This document shows positions 16,246-51,633 of a stretch of 64,000 nt of DNA, piece after piece. The notes below the pieces were generated by a model, which worked only from the letters and a program-made list of their open reading frames with translations, did no database searches and was not told where the DNA came from. The position numbers and the translations under genes were made by a program. Source of the DNA: an uncultured Acidobacteriota bacterium. GTDB taxonomy: Bacteria > Acidobacteriota > UBA6911 > RPQK01 > JAPXNP01. Numbering within the stretch: the stretch's first letter is position 1; each line of letters opens with the position of its first letter. The stretch covers positions 36,923-100,922 of the forward strand of contig CAVRSV010000016.1 of assembly GCA_963723965.1 (NCBI GenBank), given 5' to 3'.

Positions 16246-16260
16246 TTGGGGGAGGTGTGT

Positions 16261-19096: not shown

Positions 19097-19111
19097 GGAG
19101 AGGAGCTGGAT

Positions 19112-27620: not shown

Positions 27621-27639
27621 CACGGGGCATTCGATACCG

Positions 27640-30544: not shown

Positions 30545-30619
30545 AGCCTCGCTACCCGATCCGCAGGGGCCGCCGGCTCGACCGGCCGCCGCCGTGTCCA
30601 TTTCCGATGTGAAGGAACT

Positions 30620-38678: not shown

Positions 38679-38699
38679 CGCGTCGCTCTCCTTTCATTT

Positions 38700-38930
38700 G
38701 AAGGGTACCATCGGCGGATTTGAGATTTGAGATTTGAGATTTACGATTTGGAGGCGCAAAGGGTAAGGGTTGTGTTGGATCGGGCAGTGGCAGGCAGGCA
38801 AATGCACGGCGGGCCGCCACCAACAAAGAATCCCTTTGCGGCGTTGCGTACTTCGCGGCTTGGCGTGAGATCAGGCTGCCGAGCCCTCACTCCAGTGGCG
38901 GCACACCGATCGGAGGCCGCCGCGGCTGTG
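38700..38930 (+). repeat. GATTTGA 7-mer micro-tandem plus Family-B repeat copy 4
   Basis: ggatttgagatttgagatttgagatttacgatttgg. Then ...caaagaatccctttgcggcgttgcgtacttcgcggcttggcgtgagatcaggctgccgagccctcactccagtggcggcac. Confidence 0.7.
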
Positions 38931-38931
38931 C

Positions 38932-40410
38932 TCAGCGACGTCGGAGCAGGGAGCTGCCGAGGAGGCTCTTCAGGAAGAAGAGCACTTCCGTGCGCGATTT
39001 GCGGTTTCCCTCCAGGCGGAATCGCATGGTGAAGCCGACCCAGGCGGCGTAGAGGAAGGCGTAGAACCGGTCCAGGGGAAGCCGCGTCAGGACCGGTTCC
39101 AGCGGTCTCAGAAAGGGGAAGGCGACGATCAGACCGAACAGTTTCTGCAGGCGCTCGTCGCGGCGCTTTTCCGCCGGATCGTCAAAGGCCAGGGCCGAGA
39201 AACTGTTGGTCCGGTCCGGCACAGGTCCGCCGGGCGCCAGATGGCCGCTCTGTTCCGAGTAGGCCGTCAGGTCCGTGCCCGGCAAGGGAAAGAAGAGCTG
39301 ACTCAGGGCCAGATCGGGCCGACAGCGCAGGTTCAGATCGAGGGTCCGACGGTCGATCTCGAGGGGGTGTTCGACGGGCAGGGCCAGCATGTTCTGCGTG
39401 ATGAAGCGGATTCCGTACCGGTGCAGCAGGCCGCTGACCCGGAGGAATTCCCGGTTGGAGATGTCCCGTCTCAGCAGATCGCGGGAGACCGTTTCGTCGC
39501 CCGTTTCGATTCCGAAGCAGACGACCCGGCAGCCCGCCTTCTGGAGGAGCCGGATCTTCTCCTCCGTCACCGTCTTGACGTGCACGTTGCAGTAGAAGGG
39601 AATGCCCACCTCGCGGGGAAAGCGCTCGGCGAAATCCTCCAGCCACGCCGTGTCGCACAGGGTGAAGATGTCGTCGTCGATGTAGGCGAACGAAGTCCCG
39701 TAGCGGGATTTCGTGAGGCGGACCTCCTCCATGAAATTGTCCACACTCCGGCGGCGGAGGATGCGCCCGTGATTGCAGAACAGGGCGTTGTACTTGTGGT
39801 TGAAGCAGTAGCTGCACCGATAGGGGCAGCCTCGCGAGGCGAAGAAGATGTGGCTGCGGTATTCCCGATGTAGCCGGGTACCCCGCGACATGAGCTCGCG
39901 GTCGGGGAAGGGGATCCGGTCCAGGTCCTCGACCAGCGGTGCGGGCGGGTTCCGGATCACCGCCCCGTCGACGTGAAAGTGCATTCCCTCGACCTGCGTG
40001 TAATCGCCGCCCTCGGCGAAGCGCTCCAGAAAGGCCGGGAAGCTGATGTCCCCCTCTCCGATGAGGATGGCATCCACGAAGGGCTGCGACGCCATCTCCG
40101 GCGAGAAGGTGGGATGGGGGCCCCCGAAGAGCAGAAAACACCCGGTGTCGCGGCGAAGCCGGCGAGCCAGATCCTGCAGGGCCGGATACTCGGGGGACAT
40201 GACACTGAAGCCCAGGATGTCCGGCCGGCTCCGGCGGATGCGCTCCAGCAGATCCCCGTACGAAGAATCGTCGCTGATCGCGAGATCCGTTTCCCAGCCC
40301 TGTGACCGGGCGAGGGACGAGAGATACATGACTCCCAGCCGTTCCATCGTGTAGAGATTCTTCACCACGAAGAGAAGGCGGCGTCCGACGGACGTGCGTT
40401 TCGCCTCCAT
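38932..40410 (-). CDS. B12-binding domain radical SAM protein (class B radical SAM, likely C-methyltransferase-type)
   Basis: N-terminal cobalamin-binding Rossmann-like region (DILGFSVMSPEY...LLFGGPHPT). Radical SAM CPYRCSYC. RBS GGAGG before ATG 40410. Confidence 0.85.
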   Translation of the reverse strand: MEAKRTSVGRRLLFVVKNLYTMERLGVMYLSSLARSQGWETDLAISDDSSYGDLLERIRRSRPDILGFSVMSPEYPALQDLARRLRRDTGCFLLFGGPHPTFSPEMASQPFVDAILIGEGDISFPAFLERFAEGGDYTQVEGMHFHVDGAVIRNPPAPLVEDLDRIPFPDRELMSRGTRLHREYRSHIFFASRGCPYRCSYCFNHKYNALFCNHGRILRRRSVDNFMEEVRLTKSRYGTSFAYIDDDIFTLCDTAWLEDFAERFPREVGIPFYCNVHVKTVTEEKIRLLQKAGCRVVCFGIETGDETVSRDLLRRDISNREFLRVSGLLHRYGIRFITQNMLALPVEHPLEIDRRTLDLNLRCRPDLALSQLFFPLPGTDLTAYSEQSGHLAPGGPVPDRTNSFSALAFDDPAEKRRDERLQKLFGLIVAFPFLRPLEPVLTRLPLDRFYAFLYAAWVGFTMRFRLEGNRKSRTEVLFFLKSLLGSSLLRRR

Positions 40411-41690
40411 CAAGGCCTCCCCTGCAGTGCGGCCCGGCCGGAAGGCCGGCAGAAGGCCCGGATCGCATCGATGTTCCGCTCGATTTCGGCGACGGGATAT
40501 CGCGGGTAGGTCGGAAGGAGGACGAGCGACTCGGAGGCCCGCCGGGCATTCGGGCAATCCCGTCGGAAGTCCCGGAACAGAGCGAGATCGGCGCAGTTCT
40601 TCAGGCGATGCGTCGCGATGTCACGGCCCTGGCGAAATGCCCAGTGCAGAAGCCCCCGACTCTCCCGGCACAGAATCGGGAAGTAGGGGAACACGGGGAG
40701 GGCATCGGGCTCCGGGGCGGGCAGCGTCAGACCTTCGAGGCCCGCGAGCCCGGCTCGATAGAGCTCGGCGTGGGATCGCCGGATTTCATTCTCTCTTTCC
40801 AGGCGTTCCAGGCCGCGCATCACCAGCCGCGTCTGGACACCGGTCATTCGACCCCCGTGCGAGGGAGGGACGGCTGTGAGACGGCGGACCGCGGATTCGG
40901 GATCGACGAGCCGGTTCAGGGTCCTGACTTGCCGCAAATGACCCCAGCGAAAGATGGGATAGGTCAGTCGGGTGAAGAGTGCCGGCCAGGTCGCGACGTC
41001 CGTCGCCAGCCCGAGACCGGTCAGTCCCAGGAGTCGCCAGAGGGGAAGAGGCGGCATCTGTTCGACTTCGCTTCGGATCCTTGCGGTCAGGTCCTGGGAC
41101 GGCGAGGCGAGGAGGCCCCCCCGCCAGCCGGTCAGATGTTTGTACATCCCGAAGCTGAAGACGCCCACCTCTCCCCAGGTGCCCAGGGATCGACCCCGTT
41201 CGGAGGCCCCGAAAGCCTGGGCCGCATCCTCGATCAGAGGCAGCCCGTGCTTCCGGCAAATCTCCCGGAAGCGCGCGGCCCCCGCCGTCTGGCCGAAGAG
41301 ATGCGTGATCAGAACGGCACCGGTCCGGGGGCCGAGGAGTCGCTCCACTTCGACGGGATCGATGTGGCAGCCCCCTGACACCACATCGGCGAAGACCGGA
41401 ACGGCGCCGGCGGCGATCACCAGACTCACGACGTCGGCGATGGTCAGAGGGGACAGGATGACCTCGCTCCCGGGGGGAACGAGCGCCCGCACCGCCAGGA
41501 AGATCCCCGTGCGTGCGGCCGGAACGCACAGGGCGTGCGGGGCTGGAAGGCGGTCTTCGAGGATCCCTTCGAGATGCGCCGCTTCGCGCGCCGGGTCCGG
41601 GCGCCGAAGCACGGCTGCCACGGGCAACCCGTAGTGGGAGCGGGAGGTATAGAGCCGGAAACGCGGGTGTGGGGTGGCCTGGCCGCTCAT
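40410..41690 (-). CDS. DegT/DnrJ/EryC1/StrS-family PLP-dependent sugar aminotransferase
   Basis: 426 aa. ...VILSPLTIADVVSLVIAAGAVPVFADV..., FSFGMYKHLT (PLP-Lys region). Overlaps flanking genes. Confidence 0.85.
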   Translation of the reverse strand: MSGQATPHPRFRLYTSRSHYGLPVAAVLRRPDPAREAAHLEGILEDRLPAPHALCVPAARTGIFLAVRALVPPGSEVILSPLTIADVVSLVIAAGAVPVFADVVSGGCHIDPVEVERLLGPRTGAVLITHLFGQTAGAARFREICRKHGLPLIEDAAQAFGASERGRSLGTWGEVGVFSFGMYKHLTGWRGGLLASPSQDLTARIRSEVEQMPPLPLWRLLGLTGLGLATDVATWPALFTRLTYPIFRWGHLRQVRTLNRLVDPESAVRRLTAVPPSHGGRMTGVQTRLVMRGLERLERENEIRRSHAELYRAGLAGLEGLTLPAPEPDALPVFPYFPILCRESRGLLHWAFRQGRDIATHRLKNCADLALFRDFRRDCPNARRASESLVLLPTYPRYPVAEIERNIDAIRAFCRPSGRAALQGRP

Positions 41691-43267
41691 CGGGGAACCG
41701 GGCAGAGCGAGGCGATGCGGTGGGCGTTCGCCATGACGGTCACCGCCGTGGGGATCGCCGGGATCGTCGGGAGAACGCTCGCATCGATCAAGTGGACGTG
41801 TTCGAACTCGGGCAGCCGCCCCAGGAGGTCGGTACGGGGAAAGGCCGGTTCTTCGCTCATGGGGAAGATGCCGCCGCTGTGATAGCCGCCGCCCGGGAGG
41901 TCGACGGTCGTGCGGGAAACCAGGGGCAGACCTCCGAGCTGGCGCCAGTGGCGGCGGAGCTTTCGCGCCACGCGGCGGGCGATCTCGTCGGACCGCGGAT
42001 GAGGCCTTCCCCGCAGGAGGATTCTGCGGGCGCCTCCCGATTCGAGAACCAGCTCGATCGACGATGAGACCTGGGAGGGCAGATAGCCGAAGATCGCCAG
42101 CAGACGCGCGACGGCCTTCCGAACGGCGAAGCCGGAGAAGGGCGCGAAGGGCCCCAGTTGCTGTCGGATCAGGTCCCGATAGAGTTCGTTGAAGGTGTAG
42201 ATCTGCAGGTGGAGGCGGCGGGGTTCGATCGACCGATCTTCGATTTCGACGAAGAGCTGGGCCAGGGTGTGCAGTTCCTCTTCGAAGACGCTCTCGGACC
42301 CGCGGAAGCGAAGGAAGGGAAGGGTGAAGTGATCGCTATGGAGGATGGTCAGCGGCCGATCGAAATGCTCCAGTGACTCGAGGACGATCCTGGCCGTCGA
42401 GAGCACGCCGGCCCCGACCAGGATCAGCGAGGCTTCGAATTGCTCGCGCCGGGCCTGCTCGAGGTTCCAGACCTGGACCTGCAGTCTGGCTCCCCGACCC
42501 TGGATCCGCTCGACGAGAAACCCGGGCCGGTAGTCGATCCGATCCGACTGCCTCAGGTCCTCGAGCGTTTTCGCCGCGCTGTAGACGCAGTCGTAGGGAC
42601 AGCCGAACAGGCACAGTCCGCAGTAGTGGCAACCGGTGTTGCCGGGGGAATGACCGTTGCGGACGGCCAGTTGCGATGGAGCGACGCGGATCCCGGCGCG
42701 TTTCAGGCGCTCGCCGTGGCGGCGCGCGTCGGCCAGCAGATCCCGGGCCTGGCGGCTCAATCGCAGTGAATCCGCGTTTCCCCCGTCTTCGCAGGGAGAC
42801 ACCGGAGAGGGATCGTCGAGCCCCATCAGGGTTCGGACCGCCGCGAAGTGGGGCCCGAGACCTTCCAGGTCCATGGGCCAGTCCATCAAATCGACAGGAT
42901 CGGGAGTCTTGAAGGAGGCGCCCCAGACGTTGCTGAATCCCCCGCGGGCGTAGGAGCGGGACATGGAAACACCGGTGCCCTCGAGCTCCCGATCGTCGGA
43001 CAGGGCGCGGAAGGGAAAATCGGAGCCGAACCAGCGTTTTCGCGGAATGCCGCAAATCGAGGGCGCATCCACCGTCTTGAGCCGGTGCAGAGCCTGCGGC
43101 TGCCAGTGATCGGCGGGCGTCTCCCCGAGCTCCCGCTTGAGTTCGACCGCTGCCGCGTCCGGACCGAGTCCCACATCCAGAAGCACCGGCCTGAAGCCCC
43201 GTCCGACCAGTGCGCTGGCCGCCGCTACGGAGCTCATTCCCGACCCGATGATGAAGATCCTACTCAC
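41687..43267 (-). CDS. FAD-dependent oxidoreductase (GMC-like) with Cys-rich CHYCGLCLFGCPYDC insert
   Basis: N-terminal dinucleotide-binding IIGSGMSSVAAASAL. Cys cluster CxxCGxCxxGCPxxC. Confidence 0.5.
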   Translation of the reverse strand: MSRIFIIGSGMSSVAAASALVGRGFRPVLLDVGLGPDAAAVELKRELGETPADHWQPQALHRLKTVDAPSICGIPRKRWFGSDFPFRALSDDRELEGTGVSMSRSYARGGFSNVWGASFKTPDPVDLMDWPMDLEGLGPHFAAVRTLMGLDDPSPVSPCEDGGNADSLRLSRQARDLLADARRHGERLKRAGIRVAPSQLAVRNGHSPGNTGCHYCGLCLFGCPYDCVYSAAKTLEDLRQSDRIDYRPGFLVERIQGRGARLQVQVWNLEQARREQFEASLILVGAGVLSTARIVLESLEHFDRPLTILHSDHFTLPFLRFRGSESVFEEELHTLAQLFVEIEDRSIEPRRLHLQIYTFNELYRDLIRQQLGPFAPFSGFAVRKAVARLLAIFGYLPSQVSSSIELVLESGGARRILLRGRPHPRSDEIARRVARKLRRHWRQLGGLPLVSRTTVDLPGGGYHSGGIFPMSEEPAFPRTDLLGRLPEFEHVHLIDASVLPTIPAIPTAVTVMANAHRIASLCPVPR

Positions 43268-43279
43268 AGCAACAACCGA

Positions 43280-44326
43280 TTAGTCTCGCAGCGCGAGCTC
43301 CCGGACATCGATTTCGAAACGTTTCAGCAATTCCGCCACCTCCCGCGTCGTTAGCCGCCGGCTGTTCTGGATCGCTCGCCGGCTTCGGAGCGTCGGTCGC
43401 AGCAGACGGGCGGCGCTCGCGTAGGACCATGCCAGGTTCACCAGTAACCGCAGACCGCCGTGCTCTCCGGCAAAGCGCCCCGCCGAGCCCGTTCGTTTCA
43501 AGGCGGCGTACGTGTGCCAGCCGTAGCGCCGAATCGTCCAGTAGGGATTCTGCAGCAGGATCGAGAGAGGAAAATTCTTCAACGCCAGCAGGATGCGATT
43601 GCGCTCCACGAGCATGACCTTGAGCGGGGAGTAGGCTCCCGCCGTCGCCGAGTGGCGGTGATATACGAGGGCAGCGGGGACAAACCAGGCCCGCCAACCC
43701 AGCAGCCGGGCCCGCATGCCGAGATCGGCATCGTCGCCATAGGCGAAAAAGGTCTCATCGAAGCCGCCCGTCTCCTCGATCAGGTCGCGATGATAGAGAG
43801 CGGCGCAGGCGTCGGGCCACAGGATCTCGCCCTCCTGGTCGTACTGGCCCCGGTCGATCTCCATGGTTCCGCGGCCGCGGTTCTGCCCGTCGCGGTAGAT
43901 GAGATGCCCGACCTTGTCGATCACGCCTGGAGGGTCGGTCAGCAGAATCTTGCTGCCGACCATACCGATCCGCTGCCGGCGGTCTCCCCGCCGGATCAAC
44001 TGCTCGAGCCAGTCGGGAGCCGCCACGGCGTCGTTGTTCAGCAGGGCGAACCACTGGCCTTCGGCCTGGCGAAAGGCCAGATTGTTGGCTTGGGTGAAGC
44101 CGGTATTGCGGTCGAGCCAGAGGACGCGGGCGTCGGATCGGCCCTCGACCCATCGGCGGAGGACGCCCACGGATCCGTCCGTGGACCCGTTGTCGACGAT
44201 GATGAACTCTCGGTGGGGCCAGGTCTGGCGATCGAGCGACGCCAGGCAGTCGGTGAGGAACTCCTCTCCGTTCCAGTTCACCACTACGACGCTGATCAGG
44301 TTCTGGGGTTCACCGCTGCTGGACAT
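43280..44326 (-). CDS. Family 2 glycosyltransferase
   Basis: ISVVVVNWNGEEFLTDCLASL...IVDNGSTDGS...DDADLGMRA (DxD and ED motifs). Start at the internal ATG. Confidence 0.85.
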   Translation of the reverse strand: MSSSGEPQNLISVVVVNWNGEEFLTDCLASLDRQTWPHREFIIVDNGSTDGSVGVLRRWVEGRSDARVLWLDRNTGFTQANNLAFRQAEGQWFALLNNDAVAAPDWLEQLIRRGDRRQRIGMVGSKILLTDPPGVIDKVGHLIYRDGQNRGRGTMEIDRGQYDQEGEILWPDACAALYHRDLIEETGGFDETFFAYGDDADLGMRARLLGWRAWFVPAALVYHRHSATAGAYSPLKVMLVERNRILLALKNFPLSILLQNPYWTIRRYGWHTYAALKRTGSAGRFAGEHGGLRLLVNLAWSYASAARLLRPTLRSRRAIQNSRRLTTREVAELLKRFEIDVRELALRD

Positions 44327-44453
44327 GAAGCTGACAGTTGTCTGTTGTGTCGCCGTTCCCGCTGTAAGTATACTGACTCTTACCGCGCACAGGTAGCCAT
44401 ATTTCGCCGCTTCGAGGTGGGGCTGCACAGGGGGCGAAGGTTCGGCGGAGACG

Positions 44454-45485
44454 ATGGGACGAGTCAGGGCAGGCGAACGCTTTCACAGGCTGCGGCTTCT
44501 GCGCAGCTACCTCCGCGGCGACCTCGAAGCCCCCGAACTTCCGGCGACTGCCGTTCTGGGCGTCAGCAATCGCTGCAACCTCAATTGTCCGATGTGCCTG
44601 CGTTCCGTCCGCCGTTTTCCCGGTCGCCCCACGGATTTCGAGGCCTTTCGGAGTGTCCTCGACCAGGGGGCTCGGAGCTTCCGCTATGTGAGCCTCGACG
44701 GGCCCGGGGAACCTCTTCTGAATCCCGATTTGCACAGGATGGTGGCGTATTGCCGCTCGCTTGGGATCCGCGTCGTCTATTCGACCAACGCCACGCTGCT
44801 CGACGAGGTGGGCATCGATGCCGTCCTGGATTCGGGACTCGACCACATCATCTTCTCGGTCAACGGCGTGACGCCGGAGGTGTTCGAGAAGTACAACCGC
44901 GGTGCCGACTACGGGGAAGTGGTCCGCAGGATCCGCCGTTTCCTGAACCGAAAGCTCGAACGGCGTTCGCCGATCCTGGTCACCGTCCAGATGGTGCGCC
45001 TGCCCGATACGATTCCGCAGGCACGGCGCTTTCGTGAAGTGTGGCGGGTTCCGGGCGTGGATTCCATCCGCATCAAAGCCGATGTGGTGCGTCTCGACGG
45101 AGTCGCCGCCGACGAGCGAAAGGAGCCCGAGGAACCGGGGAATCGCTGTCCCCGACTGTGGGGCGGACCCCTTTACGTCAACTATGATGGCGACGTGTAC
45201 GGGTGTCCGGGAGTGCTGTTTCGCACGGAGGCCCTCGGGAACACGAACGAGCGTGCTCTGATGGAACTGTGGAATGGGGATCGGATGCGGGAGATGCGGC
45301 GGGCCCACGTGGAGGGTGACTTCTCGGCGGTGCCCGAGTGTGCCACCTGTCAATATCCACGTCCCCGAATTCCCCTGATTCTGGGGAGCTTCCTGTTCGA
45401 TCCTTTTCTGGTGGGTCGCGTGATCCCGTTTTTCGAAAAGCTGGCTTTTTTCCGAAGGCTGCCCTTGTATGAACGTTTCGACTGA
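44454..45485 (+). CDS. Radical SAM protein with C-terminal SPASM/twitch domain
   Basis: CNLNCPMC (CxxxCxxC). C-terminal Cys array CPRLWGGP...CPGV...CATCQY. Confidence 0.8.
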   Translation: MGRVRAGERFHRLRLLRSYLRGDLEAPELPATAVLGVSNRCNLNCPMCLRSVRRFPGRPTDFEAFRSVLDQGARSFRYVSLDGPGEPLLNPDLHRMVAYCRSLGIRVVYSTNATLLDEVGIDAVLDSGLDHIIFSVNGVTPEVFEKYNRGADYGEVVRRIRRFLNRKLERRSPILVTVQMVRLPDTIPQARRFREVWRVPGVDSIRIKADVVRLDGVAADERKEPEEPGNRCPRLWGGPLYVNYDGDVYGCPGVLFRTEALGNTNERALMELWNGDRMREMRRAHVEGDFSAVPECATCQYPRPRIPLILGSFLFDPFLVGRVIPFFEKLAFFRRLPLYERFD

Positions 45486-48400
45486 GCGGGCTTCCGGCAG
45501 ATCGCCGGCGATCCTGCTGGAGGGCCAGAAACGGAGACAGATCGAGTACCACGAGCGGGCGCACTATGACGCCCGCCGCCCCCGGATGGTCGACAACCGG
45601 CATCCCCTCGTGGCGTGGTTGAACTGGTATCGACTCCGGACGGCCCTCGCTTTGATCGGCGAGCCCCTCGAGGGACGATCCGTCCTCTCCGTATGCGGCG
45701 GAGACGGTGAGGAGGCGGATTTCCTCGAGAGGCAGGGGGCAAAGACGACGATGATCGATCTCTCCGAAGCCGGGGTTCGGGCTGCTGGCCTCCGCAACCC
45801 CGCGGTGCGGAGCCTACGTATGGATGGCGAGGCATTGTCCTTTCCGGATCGATCGTTTGACTGGGTTCTGGTCCGAGATGGACTGCATCACCTGGCCCGG
45901 CCTCTGAAGGGGCTCTACGAGATGGAGCGGGTGGCGCGGCGGGGTTTCGTTCTCCTGGAGGGGCAGGACTCAGGGCTCGTCCGCCTGCTTGTGCGGCTCG
46001 GCCTCGGTGAGGACTGGGACCCGGCCGGCGGTTACGTGTATCGTTTCTCGAGGCGGGAGCTCCTCAAGGTTCTCCGTGCCGTCCAGACGATCGAGAGGTG
46101 GCGGATCTCCACCGCCTGGCTCCCGCCGGGAAGTGATCTGCTGGCATATTTTCCGGTGGTGCGACGCCTCATCTACCCCGCTATTGACAACCGGATCGCC
46201 CGGCCTCTGCTGACGTCTCCGTCGGGACGCCGGTACCTGGGGATGCTCTTTCGTTTCGTGCAGGCCGTGGTCGGGCGCTGGGGGAACAGCCTGATCGTCG
46301 TCGCCTGGAAGAAGCCGGCGGCCGAAACCCCGGCAACGAGCGGGGAGCGGCGACTTCCAGCGGCCGGGACGCGGACCCGAAAGGCCGGGCACGTCGTGAA
46401 AGCCCGGACGTCGGCAGAAACCGGGCCGCTCGGGCAGAGGTCCGGGAATCTGCCAGTGACTTGGATCGTTCTTGGGCTCCTCGCGATCGCGATCAACATG
46501 CCTTTTCTGGGGCAGGCCTTCCACATCGACGACTCGGTCTTCCTCAAGGTCGCCGAAAACACCTCCCGCGACCCCCTTTTCGCCCAGGATCTGCCGATCC
46601 TGTTCGAGGGCGTCTCGGTCCCGGATCTGGCATCGGCCGAGCATCCGCCGTTGATAGCCTGGTACATGGCTCTTGCCGCGAGGTTGGGCGGAGGCTTCTC
46701 GGAGGTGGTCCTGCACACCGCTTTCCTGCTGTTTCCCGCCATCCTGGCCGTGGCCACATACTCGCTGGCTCGGCGATTCACGAGCAGCCCGGCGATTGCC
46801 ACGGTGGCGCTCCTCGTGTCGCCGGTAGTCTTCGTGATGTCTCATACCCTGATGACCGACCTGCCCCTGATGGCTCTGTGGACGGCCTCGGTGGCCCTGT
46901 TCGTCCATGGCCTCGACTCGGGGCGGATGCGCTGGGCCTGGATCGGCGGGATTACAGCGGCGCTGGCCACTTTTGCGTCCTACGCCGGACTCTGTTTGGT
47001 ACCGCTCCTGGCGGCTTATTCCGTGTTGAAGAAGCGGCCGGCTGGTTTGCTGCCGTCGATGCTGCCCGTACCGGCATTCGGCGCGTGGCTGGCCCTGAAC
47101 GCCGTGCACTACGGGCGCTTTACTCCAGGTCCTCTGCTGAATCACTACCTCTTCGTGGAGAAGGTGCTGGCACCCGGCCTGATCGGAGACAAGCTGATCT
47201 ATGCGGTGGTCGTTCTGGGCGGGGCGACGCTCTTCCCGCTGGCGCTCGTGGCGCTGGGAACGGTGCGGAGGATCGTCGCGGGCTTTCTGCTCGCCGTTGC
47301 CCTGGTCTTCATCACCGAGGTCCGCGCCTACGATCTTCCGGCGGCGGCCTGCTTCGTGGGGCTGTTCAGCGCGGGGTTCGTGGCGCTGTGGGAGATCTTC
47401 CGGAGTTTCGGGCGCTCTCTGCGCTCGCTGCGGAGCCTGCCGAGCGAGGCTGCCGACGACCTGTTCCTCGGCCTCTGGTTTACGGGAGCGCTGGCTTTTT
47501 GTGTCCTCGTCTATCTGACTGGGGCCGCTCGATATCTACTGCCGGCAGTGCCGCCATTCATTCTGATGGTGGTTCGCCGGGCCGAGCTGCGGACGGGAGG
47601 CCGCTTGCTCCACCTTGCGGTCCCGGCGTTGTTCGCCACCGCAATCATGGCCCTGGCTGCGGCCACGGCGGATTTCCAGTTCGCACGGATCTACCAGGAG
47701 TTTGCGGGATCGCTTGCAGCCTCTGCAGCCTCCCGGGAGCCGGGACGTCGAGTCTGGTTCACCGGTGAATGGGGCTTCCGCGCGTACCTGGAACGATTGG
47801 GCGGGCGGGAACTGGGACGGCGGGATCCCCGTCCCCGACCCGGTGATCGCCTGATCGTTCCCACGCTGGCGACGCCTTATCCCACGTTGTTCAGCGATCG
47901 CCTGGGACTCGACTGCATCGTGCTGGTCGCTCCGAGCCGGGTGTCCTTCGAGCTGCCGGCGGTGCAGGCCGGGGATGTTCTGTCCTTCACAGTGGGGATG
48001 CCCCTTCACGATGTGAGCGACGGGCTGGATCTGGGCGTTCTCTTCGTTTCGGGGAAGGATCGGGAGTGGATCCGGCGGGAGCGCCTCGAGCCACAGTCAG
48101 GTCGACGCTGGACCGAGTGGAACCTGCCACTGGATCCTTGGAAGGGACGGAAGGGAACGATCGTCTTCTCGGCCCGCGTGGGATCGTCCGGCAGGGCCGA
48201 CGGCGACTGGGTGGCCCTGGCCCGGGCCCGGATCGAGGGCGCCCCGACGGCAGGCGGCCCGGCGCGCTTCGATTTCCTGCAACATTTCGAGCGGGCGTCC
48301 ATCGACCCTGAGCCCGGGACGGATTACCACACTCCCGGCAATGTCCCGGTCTTCCCCTACCGGGCCTGGCTGGAGCAGGAGCCGGCCAAGGTCTTACTGG

Positions 48401-48597
48401 ATCGACGGGACTTCAGTCCGTCCCTGGGTATCCGGTTGCTGGACGCCGGGTCGCACGCCGGGTTCTGGGGGATGCACTGGGGCATGCTTCCCTTTGCGTT
48501 CGCCGACGATTGGACTGCTTTGGAGTCCATTTCGATCTACCGCATCACCCGGCAGGTGGATGGGTACGGGGAGACGAACCCGGCTTGGGGACAGTGA
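45469..48597 (+). CDS. Fusion protein: class I SAM-dependent methyltransferase domain + GT-C family (PMT_2/ArnT-like, GT39/GT83-type) membrane glycosyltransferase + about 340-aa C-terminal soluble domain
   Basis: Residues about 60-200 carry the MT fold (VLSVCGGDGEEADFL...DWVLVRDGLHHL). Residues about 330-700 have more than 10 TM helices and begin with the GT-C-type motif PFLGQAFHIDDSVFLKVAE. 1042 aa, continuous ORF. Confidence 0.72.
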   Translation: MNVSTERASGRSPAILLEGQKRRQIEYHERAHYDARRPRMVDNRHPLVAWLNWYRLRTALALIGEPLEGRSVLSVCGGDGEEADFLERQGAKTTMIDLSEAGVRAAGLRNPAVRSLRMDGEALSFPDRSFDWVLVRDGLHHLARPLKGLYEMERVARRGFVLLEGQDSGLVRLLVRLGLGEDWDPAGGYVYRFSRRELLKVLRAVQTIERWRISTAWLPPGSDLLAYFPVVRRLIYPAIDNRIARPLLTSPSGRRYLGMLFRFVQAVVGRWGNSLIVVAWKKPAAETPATSGERRLPAAGTRTRKAGHVVKARTSAETGPLGQRSGNLPVTWIVLGLLAIAINMPFLGQAFHIDDSVFLKVAENTSRDPLFAQDLPILFEGVSVPDLASAEHPPLIAWYMALAARLGGGFSEVVLHTAFLLFPAILAVATYSLARRFTSSPAIATVALLVSPVVFVMSHTLMTDLPLMALWTASVALFVHGLDSGRMRWAWIGGITAALATFASYAGLCLVPLLAAYSVLKKRPAGLLPSMLPVPAFGAWLALNAVHYGRFTPGPLLNHYLFVEKVLAPGLIGDKLIYAVVVLGGATLFPLALVALGTVRRIVAGFLLAVALVFITEVRAYDLPAAACFVGLFSAGFVALWEIFRSFGRSLRSLRSLPSEAADDLFLGLWFTGALAFCVLVYLTGAARYLLPAVPPFILMVVRRAELRTGGRLLHLAVPALFATAIMALAAATADFQFARIYQEFAGSLAASAASREPGRRVWFTGEWGFRAYLERLGGRELGRRDPRPRPGDRLIVPTLATPYPTLFSDRLGLDCIVLVAPSRVSFELPAVQAGDVLSFTVGMPLHDVSDGLDLGVLFVSGKDREWIRRERLEPQSGRRWTEWNLPLDPWKGRKGTIVFSARVGSSGRADGDWVALARARIEGAPTAGGPARFDFLQHFERASIDPEPGTDYHTPGNVPVFPYRAWLEQEPAKVLLDRRDFSPSLGIRLLDAGSHAGFWGMHWGMLPFAFADDWTALESISIYRITRQVDGYGETNPAWGQ

Positions 48598-49000
48598 AGA
48601 TGATCTGAGATTTACGATTTACGATTTACGATTTGGGGGCGGACCGGGAGCTGGAAGGCGTGTCTTCCCAATTCACCGGGGCCCTGGAATTCGCCTCCGA
48701 CGCCGCAGGCGCCCTTGGGGCGCGGGAGCTTGCTCCCGCTGTCGAGCCGCCCGGGACGCCCATCCCGACACGCATCGCCGGCTCGCCGACCGACTCCCGC
48801 CGAAGCCCGGGAGTACCCACGACCGAGGCCCCTCCACCGAAAGCGGCAGCAAGCTACCGCAGTCCAAGGCGGCTTCGCCGCGGTGGCGGAGCAGGTCAAT
48901 CCCAAAGCGGCTTCGCCGCGGTGGCGGAGCAGGTTAATTCCAAGGCGGCTTGGCCGCGCTGCCACAACAGTTCAATTCAAACCGTCTGCGCCGCGCGCTT
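48598..49000. repeat. GATTTAC 7-mer micro-tandem plus Family-C multi-hairpin repeat with an internal 40-bp duplication
   Basis: gatctgagatttacgatttacgatttacgatttgg. The C-unit ends with aggcggcttcgccgcggtggcggagcaggt repeated twice. Confidence 0.75.
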
Positions 49001-49071
49001 CCTTCCCGACGGCGCTTGGCGATGTGTCTTCTTGCATATGTCCTGCATCCGTCGGACAATCTTCGTCGGCG

Positions 49072-49260
49072 ATGGCAAAGTTCCGTCGAGTCGCGGGCAC
49101 CTGTCCTCACTGCCGGCAGAAAACCCTCCGTCTCCAGTCCAGAGACGGGTGGGATTTCGAGTATACCGTTGTCTCCTCCGTCACCTTGTTCCTGCTCTAT
49201 CTGGTTAATTGGTTTCCGCCGATTGGCTGGGCTCCCTTGTACCGGAAGGAGTTCCGGTAG
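49072..49260 (+). CDS. Hypothetical small protein with N-terminal CxxC...CxxC-like zinc ribbon and one TM helix
   Basis: 62 aa, MAKFRRVAGTCPHCRQKTLRLQSRDGWDFEYTVVSSVTLFLLYLVNWFPPIGWAPLYRKEFR. GC3-biased codons. No clear RBS. Lies between repeat copies. Confidence 0.3.
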   Translation: MAKFRRVAGTCPHCRQKTLRLQSRDGWDFEYTVVSSVTLFLLYLVNWFPPIGWAPLYRKEFR

Positions 49261-49289
49261 CTCTGTGGCAACTGCGGGCGCGTTTATCC

Positions 49290-49450
49290 CTGCGACGGGA
49301 CCCCTGGAAGGAATGCAAAGCCGCCGCCCACATAGAATCCCTTTGCGGCGTTGCGTACTTTGCGACTTGGCGTGAGATCAAGCTACCGAAACCACTCTCC
49401 AGTGGGAGCGGACGCACCAGACCAACGCCACGGCCATTTGGGCAACACGC
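49290..49450 (+). repeat. Family-B repeat copy 5 (right TIR catttgggcaacacgcccccg present)
   Basis: ...catagaatccctttgcggcgttgcgtactttgcgacttggcgtgagatcaagctaccgaaaccactctccagtgggagcggacgcacc...atttgggcaacacgccccc. Confidence 0.7.
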
Positions 49451-49590
49451 CCCCGCATTTCGAGTTCCCGAGAACCGTCACGCGCGAATCGTTATAATTC
49501 CGTGCAGAGCGCCCACGCAGGGCAAAATCGTCAATCTCAAAAGGCAAGTCTCAAATCCTGTACCGTCTTGCGCCGGATGGAGGAGGCCAG

Positions 49591-50394
49591 ATGACCACCC
49601 CGGTTCTTCGGGAGCAGATCGCTGCCGCAGAGGCCTACGAGGCGTTGCACGTTCCGAGCCTCTTCCGGCAATGGCCTCCTCGGGTCCTCGCCGCCGTCAC
49701 CGTCGGACCGGGAGATCGGGTGCTCGATGTGGCCTGTGGCACGGGCGTCCTGGCGCGTGAAGCGCGCCGACGGCTGGGCCCGTCGGGCCTTGTTGCGGCG
49801 ATCGATCCGGACCCGGGTATGCTGACGGTGGCGCGCCGGCTAGATCCTTCGGTCGCGTGGCGGCAGGGGAAGGCCGAGTCGTTGCCCTTTCGGGACCAGG
49901 AGTTCCATGCGGTGGTCAGCCAGTTCGGCCTGATGTACTTCTCCGACGGGCGCCGTTCCCTTCGAGAAATGCTCCGGGTGTTGGCTCCCGGAGGTCGCCT
50001 CGCCGTGGCGGTCTGGGACAGTCTCGAGAATTCCGGCGCCTATCCGATCGAGGTCGATCTGCTCGATCGCCTCGCCGGCTCGCAAGCAGCCGACGCTCTG
50101 CGCGCCCCGTTCGTGCTGGGGGTGCGGGAGGAACTGGCCGATCTGTTCGAAGGTGCGGGTGTGGGGCAGGTGAACATCGAGACCCACCCGGGCCTGGCGC
50201 GATTCCCGAGCATCCGGTCCCTGGTGGAGGCCGATCTCCGCGGTTGGCTCCCGGTCATGGGGGTAGCGCTGGAAGAATCTCAAATCCGCCGGATCCTGGC
50301 CGAGGCCGAGAGCGCACTGGAACAATACGTGACCAGCGAGGGAGAAGTTGTCTTCGATGCCCCCGCCCACATCGTCACGGGCCGCCGACTTTGA
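49591..50394 (+). CDS. Class I SAM-dependent methyltransferase (UbiE/COQ5-like)
   Basis: VLDVACGTGVLA (motif I), ...FHAVVSQFGLMYF, LAPGGRLAV. Confidence 0.8.
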   Translation: MTTPVLREQIAAAEAYEALHVPSLFRQWPPRVLAAVTVGPGDRVLDVACGTGVLAREARRRLGPSGLVAAIDPDPGMLTVARRLDPSVAWRQGKAESLPFRDQEFHAVVSQFGLMYFSDGRRSLREMLRVLAPGGRLAVAVWDSLENSGAYPIEVDLLDRLAGSQAADALRAPFVLGVREELADLFEGAGVGQVNIETHPGLARFPSIRSLVEADLRGWLPVMGVALEESQIRRILAEAESALEQYVTSEGEVVFDAPAHIVTGRRL

Positions 50395-50581
50395 GGCCGC
50401 GTACCGCAGCCAGGAGAGCCTCCCCCGACGTTCCATTCTTGCGGAGTGGCGAGACCGACTGAGCGTGGTGCCGCTTCACCTCCTCGCTGAGTTGAATGAG
50501 CACGTCGGTGACGACGGAGATGGAATAGGGGGCGTTGAGGTCCGAAACCTCCACGTGCGAGATCACCGATCGACGTTTCAT
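50375..50581 (-). CDS. Hypothetical small protein (68 aa)
   Basis: ORF with ATG at 50581, downstream of the minus-strand methyltransferase. No recognisable domain. Confidence 0.2.
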   Translation of the reverse strand: MKRRSVISHVEVSDLNAPYSISVVTDVLIQLSEEVKRHHAQSVSPLRKNGTSGEALLAAVRGLKVGGP

Positions 50582-50715
50582 GGCGGGACGCCTCCTAGTA
50601 CGCACGAGCACCCAGGGGTGGATGCTTCGATGTTTTCGCGTTGCCGCGATTGGATTGTCCCGACTCTATCTGGGGCGGCAATTGAAGAGAACCGGCAGGA
50701 TGCTGAGCAATGCCA

Positions 50716-50750
50716 AGGGGAATCCCTGAGTTTCGAAAAGGGGATTCCCG
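50716..50750 (-). terminator. Stem-loop immediately after the methyltransferase stop (possible terminator or attenuator)
   Basis: GGGAATCCC-tgagtttcgaaaag-GGGATTCCC inverted repeat starting 2 nt after the stop. No T-run, so intrinsic termination is uncertain. Confidence 0.35.
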
Positions 50751-50751
50751 C

Positions 50752-51633
50752 TCAGGCGGACGGAGAACTGCCGAGCTCCGCCTGCTTCCTGGCCACGACT
50801 GCGAATTCGCCCGATCCCGGGCCGTACGGGGCTCCCGCGACGTCCAGGTAGAGCTCCTCCACCGGCAGACCGGCCTCCAGGAGCTCCCGCTTCAGCTCTT
50901 CGGGCGTAAAGTACTGGAACCAGTTGTAGACGGTTCGGATGCGGTCCGCTTCCACGATGGTGTACTTCTCCAGCACGACCCTGTCCGCGGGGTACTTGAA
51001 GGTGTTCTGGAAGCAGAAGTAGGGGCGTGGCGACCAGAACCCTTCGAAGGTGTTGACGCCGTATTTTCGGGTCTCAAGAACCCGGTCGAATTCCTCCATC
51101 GAGTAGACATCGAGCAGGACCGATCCGCCCGGCCTCAGAATCGTGTGAAACGTGGTCAGGAGCCGGCTTCGCTGGTCCGGGCTCAGGGCGCAGAAGTCGC
51201 ACATGATCATCAGGACGAGATCGAAGCGTGTCTCCGTGACGAAGTCGAGGTAGTTCTGCTGGACGTACTGGATCTCCAGTTTCTCCCGGCCCGCGGCCTG
51301 TCGCGCAAAATCGATCGATCGGGCCGAGAAATCGATGCCCGTAACCTCGGCGCCGCGCCGCGCCAGGCGGGTGGTGTAGAGGCCGGGACCGCAGCCGAAA
51401 TCAGCGACCTTCGTCCCCTTGGCGATGTCGAACCGGGACACGATCCAGTCGACGGAGCGATCGATGAATCGGGCATTCCGCGAAGAGACATCGCCCGTCT
51501 GGTCGAGGTGAAACTCCAGCATGCGGGCGGAAGTATGCTCATCCGTCCACAGGTCGTCGGCAGTGTAGAGCTCGAACGGCCGGGGCTGCTCGTTGATCTT
51601 CTGCAGATCCTGAAACAATCGGTTGTTTTTCAT
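50752..51633 (-). CDS. Class I SAM-dependent methyltransferase
   Basis: VADFGCGPGLYTTRLARRGAEVTGIDFS (motif I), LRPGGSVLLD. Confidence 0.8.
   Translation of the reverse strand: MKNNRLFQDLQKINEQPRPFELYTADDLWTDEHTSARMLEFHLDQTGDVSSRNARFIDRSVDWIVSRFDIAKGTKVADFGCGPGLYTTRLARRGAEVTGIDFSARSIDFARQAAGREKLEIQYVQQNYLDFVTETRFDLVLMIMCDFCALSPDQRSRLLTTFHTILRPGGSVLLDVYSMEEFDRVLETRKYGVNTFEGFWSPRPYFCFQNTFKYPADRVVLEKYTIVEADRIRTVYNWFQYFTPEELKRELLEAGLPVEELYLDVAGAPYGPGSGEFAVVARKQAELGSSPSA

Follow-up and report, generated by a model that had tools for sequence, protein, structure and literature searches.

We describe a six-gene acidobacterial cluster, so far undescribed, that appears to oxidise, aminate and tailor a sugar and to attach it to an extracytoplasmic glycan. 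The conserved unit spans positions 38932-48597 of the window, by which we mean the whole 64,000-nt stretch of DNA analysed here, and it recurs in about ten other Acidobacteriota genomes with its genes in identical or rearranged order. A literature search found no published description of the pathway, in line with the initial annotation, which had not recognised this gene combination.

Locus organisation and conservation

All eight genes and domains named in the initial annotation were recovered in Pfam searches of each protein (Table 1), although the matches of the flavoprotein to glucose-methanol-choline (GMC) oxidoreductases lie below the gathering scores (22.3 against 24.6, and 16.7 against 23). 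The eight gene frames carry a coding signal, with GC3 values of 0.73-0.84. The longest reading frame of the B12-domain radical SAM gene reaches 40557, and alignment with a 74%-identical orthologue in locus L001 places the start at the ATG at 40410; the longest GT2 frame likewise reaches 44428, beyond the gene as called.

Table 1. Features of the cluster and its downstream flank, in window positions.
Feature	Position	Strand	Basis
B12-binding + Radical_SAM gene, 492 aa	38932-40410	-	Pfam
DegT gene	40410-41690	-	Pfam
FAD oxidoreductase gene	41687-43267	-	Sub-threshold Pfam GMC; fold match
GT2 gene, 348 aa	43280-44326	-	Pfam
Divergent intergenic region between two operons, 127 bp	44327-44453	.	Gene coordinates
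Radical_SAM + SPASM gene	44454-45485	+	Pfam
Methyltransferase + PMT_2 fusion ORF, 1042 aa	45469-48597	+	Continuous ORF; Pfam
Fusion methyltransferase domain, residues 17-286	45517-46326	+	BLASTP against stand-alone orthologues
Fusion GT-C membrane domain, residues ~330-759	46456-47745	+	
Fusion C-terminal periplasmic beta-sandwich domain, CBM-like	47746-48597	+	
Downstream methyltransferase	49591-50394	+	
Downstream methyltransferase	50752-51633	-	

The four minus-strand genes are as tightly packed as had been described, but they overlap at only two of three junctions (by 1 and 4 nt), the third being a 12-nt gap; on the plus strand, the SPASM and fusion genes overlap by 17 nt. The divergent intergenic region has a 131-bp counterpart in L001, and a scan for the sigma-70 consensus found no site within it and counts not above chance over 38500-49700. 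The two further methyltransferase genes said to follow the fusion do exist, but they are not members of the cluster: they lie on opposite strands beyond about 1 kb of repeat-rich non-coding DNA, and they are not co-conserved with it in related loci.

The six genes themselves are co-conserved in Acidobacteriota relatives, all of them metagenome-assembled genomes. L001 holds all six in identical order, L002 holds all six rearranged, and L007-L014 hold subsets; this co-conservation accords with the earlier suggestion of a cluster for sugar tailoring and transfer. The SPASM enzyme is the signature member of the acidobacterial cluster. The B12-domain radical SAM protein, judged by its distribution, is an accessory one: orthologues occur in L001, L008 and L011, L002 has only a distant homologue, and the gene is absent from L007, L009, L010, L013 and L014.

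A family of Fe-S flavoproteins and its partners

An AlphaFold model of the flavoprotein (pLDDT 85.7) confirmed a predicted GMC fold. Its best Foldseek matches were the FAD subunits of membrane-bound fructose dehydrogenase (the large subunit of the Gluconobacter enzyme) and of Burkholderia cepacia FAD-glucose dehydrogenase (alpha subunit), with TM ~0.7 and identity of only 14-15%, followed by pyranose 2-oxidases and then by C-glycoside oxidoreductase. A ferredoxin-type motif, CxxCxxCxxxCP (C213, C216, C219 and C223), and the N-terminal GxGxxG are kept without change in all 44 homologues. In FAD subunits of the glucose and fructose dehydrogenase type, which share the GMC fold, a Cys-rich segment binds an Fe-S cluster that takes electrons from FAD (PMC9727119). 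Those enzymes, however, work in the periplasm as heterotrimers that include a Tat 'hitch-hiker' subunit and a tri-haem cytochrome c, neither of which the cluster encodes, and they hold a 3Fe-4S cluster where the protein studied here has the four-Cys motif; the latter also lacks a signal peptide. We propose that it is a GMC-fold FAD dehydrogenase that would turn a sugar hydroxyl into a ketone, and the earlier idea that it stands in ArnA's place is plausible in that it could take over ArnA's oxidative role and supply a keto sugar to the DegT enzyme.

The flavoprotein family is found in at least 445 species. In 58 of 80 sampled species loci the gene immediately following that of the flavoprotein encodes an SDR reductase, a particular DegT subfamily takes its place in 13 of the 80, as it does in the window, and in a single case (L080) flavoprotein and SDR are fused. 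Because the two partners alternate, and because of this fusion, the ketone is probably either reduced or transaminated. Within 5 kb, a GT2 gene accompanies 33 of the 58 SDR loci and three non-acidobacterial DegT loci; the GT2s scanned from these loci resemble AglJ, dolichyl-phosphate hexose transferase and PpgS and have 2-5 predicted C-terminal transmembrane segments. Among multi-pass membrane neighbours PMT_2 is the commonest Pfam family (13/77), and L005 encodes GT2, flavoprotein, SDR and GT-C consecutively within an O-antigen-type locus. These neighbours suggest a tie between the flavoprotein family and lipid-linked glycosylation.

By analogy, this points to an 'oxidise, then reduce or transaminate' chemistry upstream of GT-C transfer that resembles DprE1/DprE2, which epimerise decaprenyl-phosphoryl-ribose in mycobacteria. 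There, too, a flavoprotein forms a ketone from a sugar hydroxyl and leaves the second half of the reaction to a separate reductase, an architecture matched by the flavoprotein-SDR pair; the lipid-linked sugar (a linkage that we infer here) is then handed to GT-C enzymes with CBM-like periplasmic domains, the Emb/Aft arabinosyltransferases. The FAD fold of DprE1 is of the vanillyl-alcohol-oxidase type and has no Fe-S cluster, and DprE2 belongs to the classical SDRs, whereas the present oxidase has a GMC fold with the four-Cys motif and its partner reductase is an extended SDR, replaced in the window by an aminotransferase.

Transfer, amination and radical SAM enzymes

The DegT protein (PF01041, 167 bits) retains the PLP lysine (YKH). 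Its orthologues in flavoprotein-linked loci of six phyla reach 300-600 bits, whereas generic DegT proteins of the same loci stay at 49-91 bits, and the subfamily is invariably accompanied by the Fe-S flavoprotein; it also differs from generic DegT enzymes in having a hydrophobic insertion some 55 residues long.

The GT2 (PF00535, 94 bits; PF13641, 72 bits) has orthologues of 495-640 bits adjoining the flavoprotein gene in L001, L002 and L009-L014 except L012. It had been taken as the counterpart of ArnC, an assignment we reject: no transmembrane helix is predicted, its best NCBIfam matches are MftF (92 bits) and EpsD with ArnC reaching only E = 4.5e-4, and an hhalign comparison with polyprenyl-phosphate (DPMS-like) GT2s aligned the first 102 columns only, leaving the acceptor half unaligned. 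Going by its sequence, it is a soluble family-2 glycosyltransferase, not one of the polyprenyl-phosphate (ArnC/GtrB/DPMS) type.

The 1042-aa fusion is genuine and in frame, and its two parts are separate cluster genes elsewhere. Residues 17-286 align end-to-end, at 59-61% identity, with stand-alone methyltransferases of the related clusters in L002, L007, L010 and L013, and residues 330-1040 are 46-62% identical to stand-alone GT-C proteins; in L013 the methyltransferase gene immediately precedes that of the GT-C, and the BLASTP junction map shows a linker of about 45 residues in place of stop codon and spacer. With Methyltransf_11/23/25 matches at residues 56-204 and PMT_2 at 392-532, the predicted product is a cytoplasmic SAM methyltransferase joined by the linker to a GT-C with a periplasmic beta-sandwich domain. 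An HIDD motif sits right behind the first transmembrane helix of the GT-C domain, which is closest to enzymes using polyprenyl-monophosphate sugar donors and carries the CBM-like domain.

The SPASM enzyme (PF04055, 68 bits; PF13186, 44 bits) belongs to a family of 154 clusters at E <= 1e-30. Nine orthologues share CxxxCxxC and just three more conserved cysteines (C232, C296 and C299), a reduced C-terminal domain of SPASM/twitch type and a conserved hydrophobic tail (PRLPLI..F..DPF..G..P..E..LP.YER). Its best solved relatives are PqqE (36.8 bits), DesII (35.5 bits) and BlsE, and natural fusions join it to a methyltransferase (P0211) or to a B12-domain radical SAM protein (P0231). The window's own B12-domain protein (PF02310, 65 bits; PF04055, 59 bits), which also has a conserved hydrophobic tail, shows a CPYRCSYC motif in its translation. 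The best of its solved relatives is no methylase but the diol dehydratase AprD4 (54 bits), with TokK and CysS behind; HpnJ (90 bits), HpnR (63 bits), ApyD and RiPP C-methylases are among its NCBIfam matches, and it reaches no NCBIfam cut-off. Its role would be a sugar modification of either dehydratase or C-methylase type. For both radical SAM proteins the best solved relatives include enzymes that modify sugars (DesII, BlsE and AprD4), at a weak similarity of 35-54 bits. The 'up to four methylation activities' suggested earlier are therefore an overcount, since the only conserved methyltransferase is that of the fusion, the two downstream are bystanders and the B12-domain enzyme is AprD4-like and patchy.

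Proposed pathway and alternative explanations

The explanation that we favour, with roughly even credence, is that the six genes form a self-contained pathway in which a tailored amino sugar is made through a keto intermediate and attached to a glycan at the outer face of the cytoplasmic membrane. The soluble GT2 would attach a hexose to an acceptor anchored in the membrane, most probably an intermediate linked to polyprenyl-(pyro)phosphate; the flavoprotein would oxidise one ring hydroxyl to a ketone, its Fe-S cluster relaying the electrons to an acceptor in the membrane, and the dedicated DegT aminotransferase would convert the ketone to an amine. The SPASM enzyme and, where present, the B12-domain radical SAM enzyme may then edit the sugar by deamination or deoxygenation, epimerisation or C-methylation, and the methyltransferase, tethered to the GT-C in the window genome, may N- or O-methylate it. 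After flipping across the membrane, the finished sugar would be moved by the GT-C to an extracytoplasmic glycan recognised by its CBM-like domain. The gene content, its co-conservation, the folds of the proteins, their catalytic motifs, the alternation of partners and the natural fusions are observed here, whereas we infer what the carrier is, which carbon is oxidised, in what order tailoring proceeds, and what the acceptor and product are. That the substrate sugar is probably already membrane-anchored is hinted at by the fusion of the methyltransferase to the GT-C, by the conserved hydrophobic tails of both radical SAM enzymes and by the hydrophobic insertion of the DegT subfamily. Several observations count against this proposal: the GT2 of the window is not recognisably of the polyprenyl-phosphate type, the cluster encodes no flippase, and the co-occurrence of lipid-carrier GT2s and GT-C enzymes is also expected if a nucleotide sugar is tailored before transfer, as in Arn. 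To our knowledge, moreover, every DegT, DesII-like or AprD4-like enzyme characterised so far uses a nucleotide sugar or a soluble pseudo-oligosaccharide as substrate, and the resemblance of the two radical SAM proteins to solved enzymes is weak, as given above.

One may postulate an alternative scenario, that of the initial annotation, in which all tailoring, by flavoprotein, DegT, radical SAM enzymes and methyltransferase, takes place on a soluble nucleotide sugar; the GT2 would then load the finished sugar onto undecaprenyl phosphate, from which the GT-C would pass it to lipid A, LPS or a protein. We regard this Arn-like order as a serious but rather unlikely alternative. Characterised DegT enzymes (ArnB, DesI/DesV, perosamine synthase), DesII and DesVI-type methyltransferases use nucleotide sugars and are also the closest solved relatives; a GT2 and a GT-C are both encoded, and the co-occurrence of the flavoprotein with lipid-carrier GT2s is equally compatible. 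The GT2, however, has neither the transmembrane helices nor the acceptor half seen in ArnC/GtrB/DPMS-type enzymes, we know of no GMC-fold enzyme that uses a nucleotide sugar, and the fusion and the hydrophobic tails and insertion favour a membrane-bound substrate. The oxidation or epimerisation of a nucleotide sugar normally takes one NAD-dependent enzyme, not an FAD/Fe-S oxidase working with a separate reductase, and the pairing of the flavoprotein with an SDR is unlike this. The claim that DegT, GT2 and GT-C mirror ArnB, ArnC and ArnT holds only loosely and fails for the GT2, and no NCBIfam Arn equivalog cut-off is reached (for the DegT protein, 97 bits against the ArnB cut-off of 631). Compared with Arn (PmrHFIJKLM), which adds 4-amino-4-deoxy-L-arabinose to lipid A, the cluster lacks ArnA (the SDR decarboxylase/formyltransferase), ArnD, ArnE and ArnF; its oxidant is an FAD/Fe-S GMC-fold protein, the kinship of its soluble GT2 with ArnC is limited to the nucleotide-binding half, it has two radical SAM enzymes and a methyltransferase in addition, and its GT-C bears a large CBM-like domain that ArnT does not have. 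The DprE1/DprE2 pattern of an oxidase followed by a reductase or aminotransferase fits the comparative data better than the Arn order.

Two further groups of systems share parts of this logic. Three-component periplasmic glycosylation systems (GtrA/GtrB/Gtr*, CsbB/GtcA/YfhO and Citrobacter youngae ORF12-15; PMC11127046) likewise combine a cytoplasmic GT-A with a GT-C, and in them the lipid-linked sugar may be tailored ahead of its export. In C. youngae serotype O2 an SDR epimerase decides between Ribf and Xylf side chains, and Kelly et al. 2024 propose that it converts Und-P-Ribf to Und-P-Xylf, knowing of no other epimerases in such systems besides DprE1/E2 (PMC11127046). The window, in contrast, lacks a GtrB-type GT2 and a GtrA, SMR or MATE flippase, and nothing in the three-component systems described there corresponds to its set of tailoring enzymes, which comprises the flavoprotein, DegT, two radical SAM proteins and a methyltransferase. 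The desosamine (DesI/DesII/DesV/DesVI) and aminoglycoside (AprD4, GenK) pathways also direct DegT, radical SAM and SAM methyltransferase enzymes at one sugar, DesII and AprD4 being among the weakly similar relatives named above, but they belong to antibiotic biosynthesis, their substrates are dTDP-sugars or soluble pseudo-oligosaccharides, their entry enzyme is an NDP-sugar 4,6-dehydratase in place of a flavoprotein, and they lack a GT-C step.

It is improbable, in our view, that the cluster tailors membrane-lipid head groups without a polyprenyl carrier, with the GT2 glycosylating a resident lipid, for instance a hopanoid polyol, diacylglycerol or ether lipid, and the other enzymes remodelling the head group in the manner of HpnI, HpnJ, HpnK and HpnO. 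The B12-domain enzyme has HpnJ and HpnR among its better NCBIfam matches, the SDR partner of the flavoprotein matches the hopanoid-associated HpnA best, if weakly, the hydrophobic features of several enzymes suit a lipid substrate, and some Acidobacteriota make hopanoids and unusual membrane lipids; every Hpn score, however, is far under its cut-off, squalene-hopene cyclase and other hpn genes are absent from the window and related loci, no role is left for the conserved GT-C with its CBM-like periplasmic domain, and other phyla place the flavoprotein family in O-antigen-type loci with polyprenyl-phosphate-type GT2s. We give very little weight to a RiPP-like or mycofactocin-like scheme in which the SPASM enzyme modifies a small peptide that is then glycosylated, oxidised, aminated and methylated, for although MftF (GT2), MftG (flavoprotein, weakly) and MftC (among the SPASM hits) are best or near-best NCBIfam matches, ApyD and RiPP C-methylases match the B12-domain enzyme and L001 has a 40-aa ORF downstream of that gene, every score is far under the family cut-off, the ORF has no counterpart in the window, the cluster encodes no RRE/PqqD domain, peptidase, MftA/B/D/E homologue or exporter, the structural neighbours of the flavoprotein are sugar oxidoreductases, and the conserved partners are DegT and GT-C. 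The cluster flavoprotein is a member of a large uncharacterised family that extends to more than 400 species.

Gene layout, surroundings and conservation

All eight reading frames that the initial annotation had placed in an Arn-like glycoconjugate cluster have the G+C bias by codon position expected of genuine genes (the window has a G+C content of about 64%) and carry the Pfam domains stated for them. None of the eight proteins, comprising six cluster proteins and two downstream methyltransferases, reached an NCBIfam equivalog cut-off. On the minus strand, four genes are closely packed: two of the junctions overlap, by 1 nt and by 4 nt, and the third has a gap of 12 nt; a 127-bp spacer separates them from a divergent operon on the plus strand, in which the SPASM gene and the gene for the methyltransferase::GT-C fusion overlap by 17 nt. 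Between the cluster and the two extra methyltransferase genes lies a stretch of about 1 kb that is non-coding and rich in repeats. The two extra genes had been counted as members and are best left out, as they are not co-conserved with the cluster: one has an orthologue in L001 (L-numbers denote homologous loci from other genomes) that lies 6 kb off, behind unrelated genes.

Features of the window, with start codons of the cluster genes corrected by comparison with orthologues
Feature	Position	Strand	Remark
B12-binding-domain radical SAM enzyme	38932-40410	-	start corrected against orthologues
DegT aminotransferase	40410-41690	-	
GMC-like flavoprotein	41687-43267	-	
GT2	43280-44326	-	
Radical SAM/SPASM enzyme	44454-45485	+	
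Methyltransferase::PMT_2 GT-C protein	45469-48597	+	1042 aa
Extra methyltransferase	49591-50394	+	
Extra methyltransferase	50752-51633	-	
Repeat-family copies	36758-36951, 38717-38898, 48602-49405		
Further repeat-family copies	333-376, 22341-22471, 27138-27914		
Tandem 38-nt unit	48864-48977		three copies, 79-92% identity
NiFe hydrogenase operon	16246-19870	+	small subunit, large subunit, cytochrome b
NhaA-like reading frame	24907-25404	+	165 aa
Receiver-symporter fusion	28514-30601	-	695 aa

The flanking genes are unrelated to the cluster (rhodanese and SufE, two-component systems, DUF1905 and DUF4349 proteins), as is the remainder of the window, which encodes a GH9 cellulase, glycogen enzymes, a NiFe hydrogenase, a sulfatase and a fumarase. 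Within the window, no genes for LPS, hopanoids or polysaccharide export lie near the cluster and no tRNA genes were found. An Rfam scan of the whole window returned no family at its gathering score, and hence no cobalamin or SAM riboswitch, and consensus scans for promoters and terminators gave site counts no higher than in shuffled sequence. Copies of a dispersed intergenic repeat family, built of 47-, 81- and 86-nt segments at 80-92% identity, directly flank the six-gene cluster on either side and also lie upstream of the SufE gene. We considered these as direct repeats marking the ends of a mobile island and rejected this, given that the further copies in the table identify a dispersed family. 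The SufE-rhodanese pair has the cluster on its other side in L001 compared with the window, and recombination between dispersed repeats may have moved the cluster relative to this pair.

Several other features of the window were recorded. The tandem 38-nt unit lies in the spacer downstream of the GT-C gene and has no Rfam match. Elsewhere, a response-regulator receiver domain is fused to a Na+/sulfate (CitMHS-type) symporter and adjoined by histidine kinases, and a short reading frame that matches the NhaA Na+/H+ antiporter profile over its C-terminal third only (235-374) may represent a gene that has been truncated or has suffered a frameshift. The hydrogenase operon is ordinary and unrelated to the cluster.

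Conservation of the six genes was assessed in acidobacterial loci. All six are present in L001, in the same order as in the window, and in L002, in rearranged order; in L003 only the B12-domain radical SAM gene is kept beside the GT-C gene. A phmmer census added eight loci (L007-L014), in which flavoprotein, DegT and SPASM enzyme form a constant trio; as a rule the soluble GT2, methyltransferase and GT-C accompany them, whereas the B12-domain radical SAM enzyme does so only in some cases. The recurring methyltransferase is orthologous to the fusion's N-terminal domain and is encoded directly upstream of the GT-C gene in L013; the GT-C part has homologues in Acidobacteriota MAGs that stand alone and are about 720 aa long. 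By BLASTP, the stand-alone methyltransferase is matched over its full length by residues 17-286 of the window protein, and the GT-C protein by residues 330-1040; the 1042-aa protein is therefore a true gene fusion. Some acidobacterial clusters also contain another radical SAM/SPASM gene, divergent from the first (23-32 bits between the two; L007 14678-16796, L011 254-1321, L013 17991-19112), which sometimes replaces the B12-domain radical SAM enzyme.

The flavoprotein and its alternating partners

The hub of the system is the flavoprotein. Over 400 homologues share 36-65% identity with it, and a scan in which each species was represented by a single genome found at least 445 carrier species, including Acidobacteriota, Verrucomicrobiota, Planctomycetota, Dormibacterota, Melainabacteria, Cyanobacteria, Actinomycetota, Myxococcota and one Methanosarcinales archaeon. 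Among 44 aligned homologues, the cysteines of a CxxCxxCxxxCP segment (C213, C216, C219, C223) are invariant, and this Cys-rich segment is predicted to bind an Fe-S cluster. In the N-terminal GxGxxG FAD-binding motif, G8 and G10 are nearly invariant. Candidates for a C-terminal catalytic histidine with a His/Asn partner in the aligned homologues are H492 and N514, which are invariant, and H463, which is nearly so.

The family assignment of this protein required structural comparison. It falls below the Pfam gathering scores for GMC_oxred_N and GMC_oxred_C (16.7 vs 23 and 22.3 vs 24.6 bits), and a phmmer search of PDB sequences retrieved no GMC protein and only chance Sec7 matches, so that a fold search was needed. 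The AlphaFold model (pLDDT 85.7) is predicted to adopt the two-domain GMC fold, with a Foldseek probability of 1.0 and a TM score of about 0.7 to its nearest folds, the FAD subunits of Burkholderia FAD-glucose dehydrogenase and of membrane-bound fructose dehydrogenase; pyranose 2-oxidases (TM 0.6) and a C-glycoside oxidoreductase follow. Oxidation of a sugar hydroxyl is common to all of these structural neighbours. The Cys-rich, putative Fe-S segment is shared with membrane-bound FAD sugar dehydrogenase complexes, whereas their hitch-hiker and cytochrome subunits are not: the flavoprotein has no signal peptide, and genes for a Tat hitch-hiker small subunit or a multi-haem cytochrome c are absent from the window cluster, L001, L002, L005 and L007.

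Across the 80 best species loci, out of at least 445 flavoprotein carriers, an extended-SDR reductase gene lies directly downstream of the flavoprotein gene in 58, a specific DegT subfamily takes the place of the SDR in 13, and neither partner is present in nine. A MAG of Pedosphaera (Verrucomicrobiota) encodes flavoprotein and SDR as a single 833-aa reading frame (L080 9992-12490; flavoprotein residues 4-524, SDR residues 545-827). From the alternation of SDR and DegT we therefore infer that the flavoprotein makes a ketone that is later either reduced, for a net epimerisation, or transaminated. The DegT-linked flavoproteins do not form one clade; in a neighbour-joining tree, which is crude, only the acidobacterial ones group and the rest scatter among SDR-linked proteins, a pattern that suggests repeated partner switching.

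Glycosyltransferases recur beside these genes. Of the 58 SDR loci, 33 have a GT2 within 5 kb of the flavoprotein, as do three non-acidobacterial DegT loci; the six of these GT2s that were scanned have AglJ, dolichyl-phosphate hexose transferase and PpgS as best NCBIfam matches and two to five predicted C-terminal transmembrane segments. Among multi-pass membrane neighbours, PMT_2 is the commonest Pfam family (13/77), and L005 has GT2, flavoprotein, SDR and GT-C in a row within an O-antigen-type locus with Wzm/Wzt. A compact module of DPMS/AglJ-like GT2, flavoprotein and SDR, joined in some cases by a PMT_2 GT-C, occurs at L005 9018-13919 and at about 10000-13700 in L047, L030, L027 and L045. 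Its carriers belong to many phyla, the cultured Catelliglobosispora koreensis DSM 44566 (L047) among them, and the module appears to be uncharacterised. A cultured carrier of the flavoprotein-DegT pair is Hydrococcus rivularis NIES-593 (L020). The wider flavoprotein-SDR/DegT module is a more general and more testable discovery than the acidobacterial cluster.

Tailoring and transfer enzymes compared with known systems

The DegT protein scores 167 bits against PF01041 (gathering score 19.8), and the PLP-binding lysine, in its FGMYKH motif, aligns with the positionally equivalent lysine of TlmJ and is kept in all 12 members of the flavoprotein-linked subfamily. What sets this subfamily apart from generic DegT enzymes encoded in the same loci is a hydrophobic insertion of about 55 residues. 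Both radical SAM enzymes retain their cluster-binding motifs: CPYRCSYC in the B12-domain protein and, in the SPASM enzyme, a CxxxCxxC whose cysteines (C41, C45, C48) are kept in 9/9 orthologues. The SPASM enzyme scores 44 bits against the Pfam SPASM model (21.5); the full seven-cysteine motif for two auxiliary clusters was not found in it, with only C232, C296 and C299 conserved beyond CxxxCxxC, and it more likely binds a single auxiliary cluster in a twitch-like arrangement. It has a conserved hydrophobic tail, PqqE, DesII and BlsE as best solved relatives (25-37 bits), and a family of modest size (154 clusters at E <= 1e-30). The B12-domain radical SAM enzyme matches PF02310 with 65 bits and falls far under the cut-off of every methylase model. 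The initial annotation considered it a likely C-methylase; this role is not established, since among solved structures its best relative is AprD4, which is a dehydratase and is not known to use cobalamin.

Natural fusions join several of these activities in proteins related to those of the cluster: methyltransferase and SPASM radical SAM (P0211, 662 aa), B12-domain and SPASM radical SAM (P0231, 828 aa), and methyltransferase and GT2 (P0010, 600 aa). They suggest that the fused activities share one substrate. The GT-C enzyme is modelled with high confidence (pLDDT 94) as a multi-pass GT-C fold about as close to ALG12 as to ArnT and the PMTs. The first extracytoplasmic loop has predicted catalytic residues of acidic type, and a HIDD motif follows the first transmembrane helix. 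Its C-terminal beta-sandwich resembles CBM51 and other carbohydrate-binding modules.

The likeness to the Arn pathway holds in outline, and the tests for counterparts of ArnA, ArnB, ArnC, ArnD and ArnE/F all failed. The DegT protein scores 97 bits against the ArnB equivalog NF008658 (cut-off 631), with DesI, LegC, PseC and other models scoring similarly. The GT2 had been taken as the counterpart of ArnC; it has no predicted transmembrane segment, reaches only E = 4.5e-4 against the ArnC model NF007986 over residues 45-150, and has MftF and EpsD as its best NCBIfam matches. In hhalign comparisons with DPMS/AglJ-like GT2s, 102 N-terminal columns align, corresponding to the nucleotide-binding half only. 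Judged by these sequence comparisons, it is not of the lipid-carrier type. Domains of ArnA (dehydrogenase/decarboxylase and formyltransferase), the ArnD deformylase and the ArnE/F flippase were not found in the six cluster proteins or flanking genes.

Other systems overlap with the cluster in part. Mycofactocin cut-offs are not reached (MftF 92 vs 280, MftC 55 vs 265, MftG 25 vs 400 bits), and no MftA, MftB, MftD or MftE gene is present in the cluster or its flanks. Of the three components of periplasmic glycosylation systems (GtrB-type GT2, small flippase, GT-C), the cluster has the GT-C only: no flippase candidate lies among the six genes, and GtrB/DPMS-type GT2s are found in non-acidobacterial flavoprotein loci but not here. 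With DprE1/DprE2 the cluster shares redox logic and no more, as DprE1 has a VAO/PCMH fold and the flavoprotein a GMC fold; the feeding of Emb/Aft GT-C enzymes by DprE1/DprE2 is paralleled in the architecture of the flavoprotein-SDR-GT-C loci. Kelly et al. state that, apart from DprE1/E2 and their own SDR ORF13, no epimerases in side-chain systems of this kind are known to them (PMC11127046). In the literature searched we found no description of such a cluster, in agreement with the initial annotation.

Proposed pathway and its implications

In the best-supported reading, a keto sugar would be made first and then turned into an amino sugar, the radical SAM enzymes and methyltransferase would edit the amino sugar further, and the GT-C enzyme would then move the edited sugar onto an extracytoplasmic glycan. 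The methyltransferase::GT-C fusion, hydrophobic tails, DegT insertion and Fe-S flavoprotein suggest that tailoring occurs on a membrane-anchored sugar, as does the two-enzyme oxidase/reductase design, where one NAD-dependent epimerase would suffice for a nucleotide sugar. Judged by context, namely the DPMS-like GT2 and GT-C neighbours and the hydrophobic features, the substrate may be a polyprenyl-phosphate-linked sugar. This reading leaves the soluble GT2 and the missing flippase of the cluster unexplained.

A bolder and tentative proposal is one we consider possible but somewhat less likely than not: the Fe-S GMC-fold flavoprotein would found a large, uncharacterised family, spanning at least 445 species, more than 10 phyla and at least one archaeon, that oxidises polyprenyl-phosphate-linked hexoses at the cytoplasmic membrane face, epimerising them with an SDR and aminating them with a dedicated DegT, and would thereby be the equivalent, for hexoses, of DprE1/DprE2. 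In that case the acidobacterial cluster would provide the first example of a lipid-linked donor sugar that undergoes radical SAM chemistry ahead of its transfer by a GT-C enzyme. An Arn-like order of steps fits the co-occurrence with carrier GT2s and GT-C enzymes equally well. A pathway to a membrane-lipid head group is less likely. So is a RiPP-like pathway; its candidate precursor, a 40-aa reading frame after the B12-domain radical SAM gene of L001, was rejected, having no counterpart in the 253-bp spacer of the window.

To our knowledge, extracytoplasmic envelope sugars are thought to be diversified almost entirely as nucleotide sugars, and few edits are known to take place once the sugar is on its lipid carrier, namely those by DprE1/E2, by one SDR epimerase and by deformylases or deacetylases. 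The cluster would fit a known frame, that of periplasmic glycosylation fed by a tailored donor. Were the Arn-like order correct, the cluster would still represent a new amino-sugar pathway, with an unprecedented FAD/Fe-S oxidation step. If tailoring of a membrane-anchored sugar is borne out, the flavoprotein and its partner, acting at or near the membrane, would constitute a new general route to rare or amino sugars for GT-C transfer, widened further by two radical SAM enzymes and a methyltransferase. Such a route would help to annotate hundreds of "choline dehydrogenase-like" genes, could be of use in glyco-engineering, and would shed light on the cell surface, so far little understood, of soil Acidobacteriota, Verrucomicrobiota and Planctomycetota.
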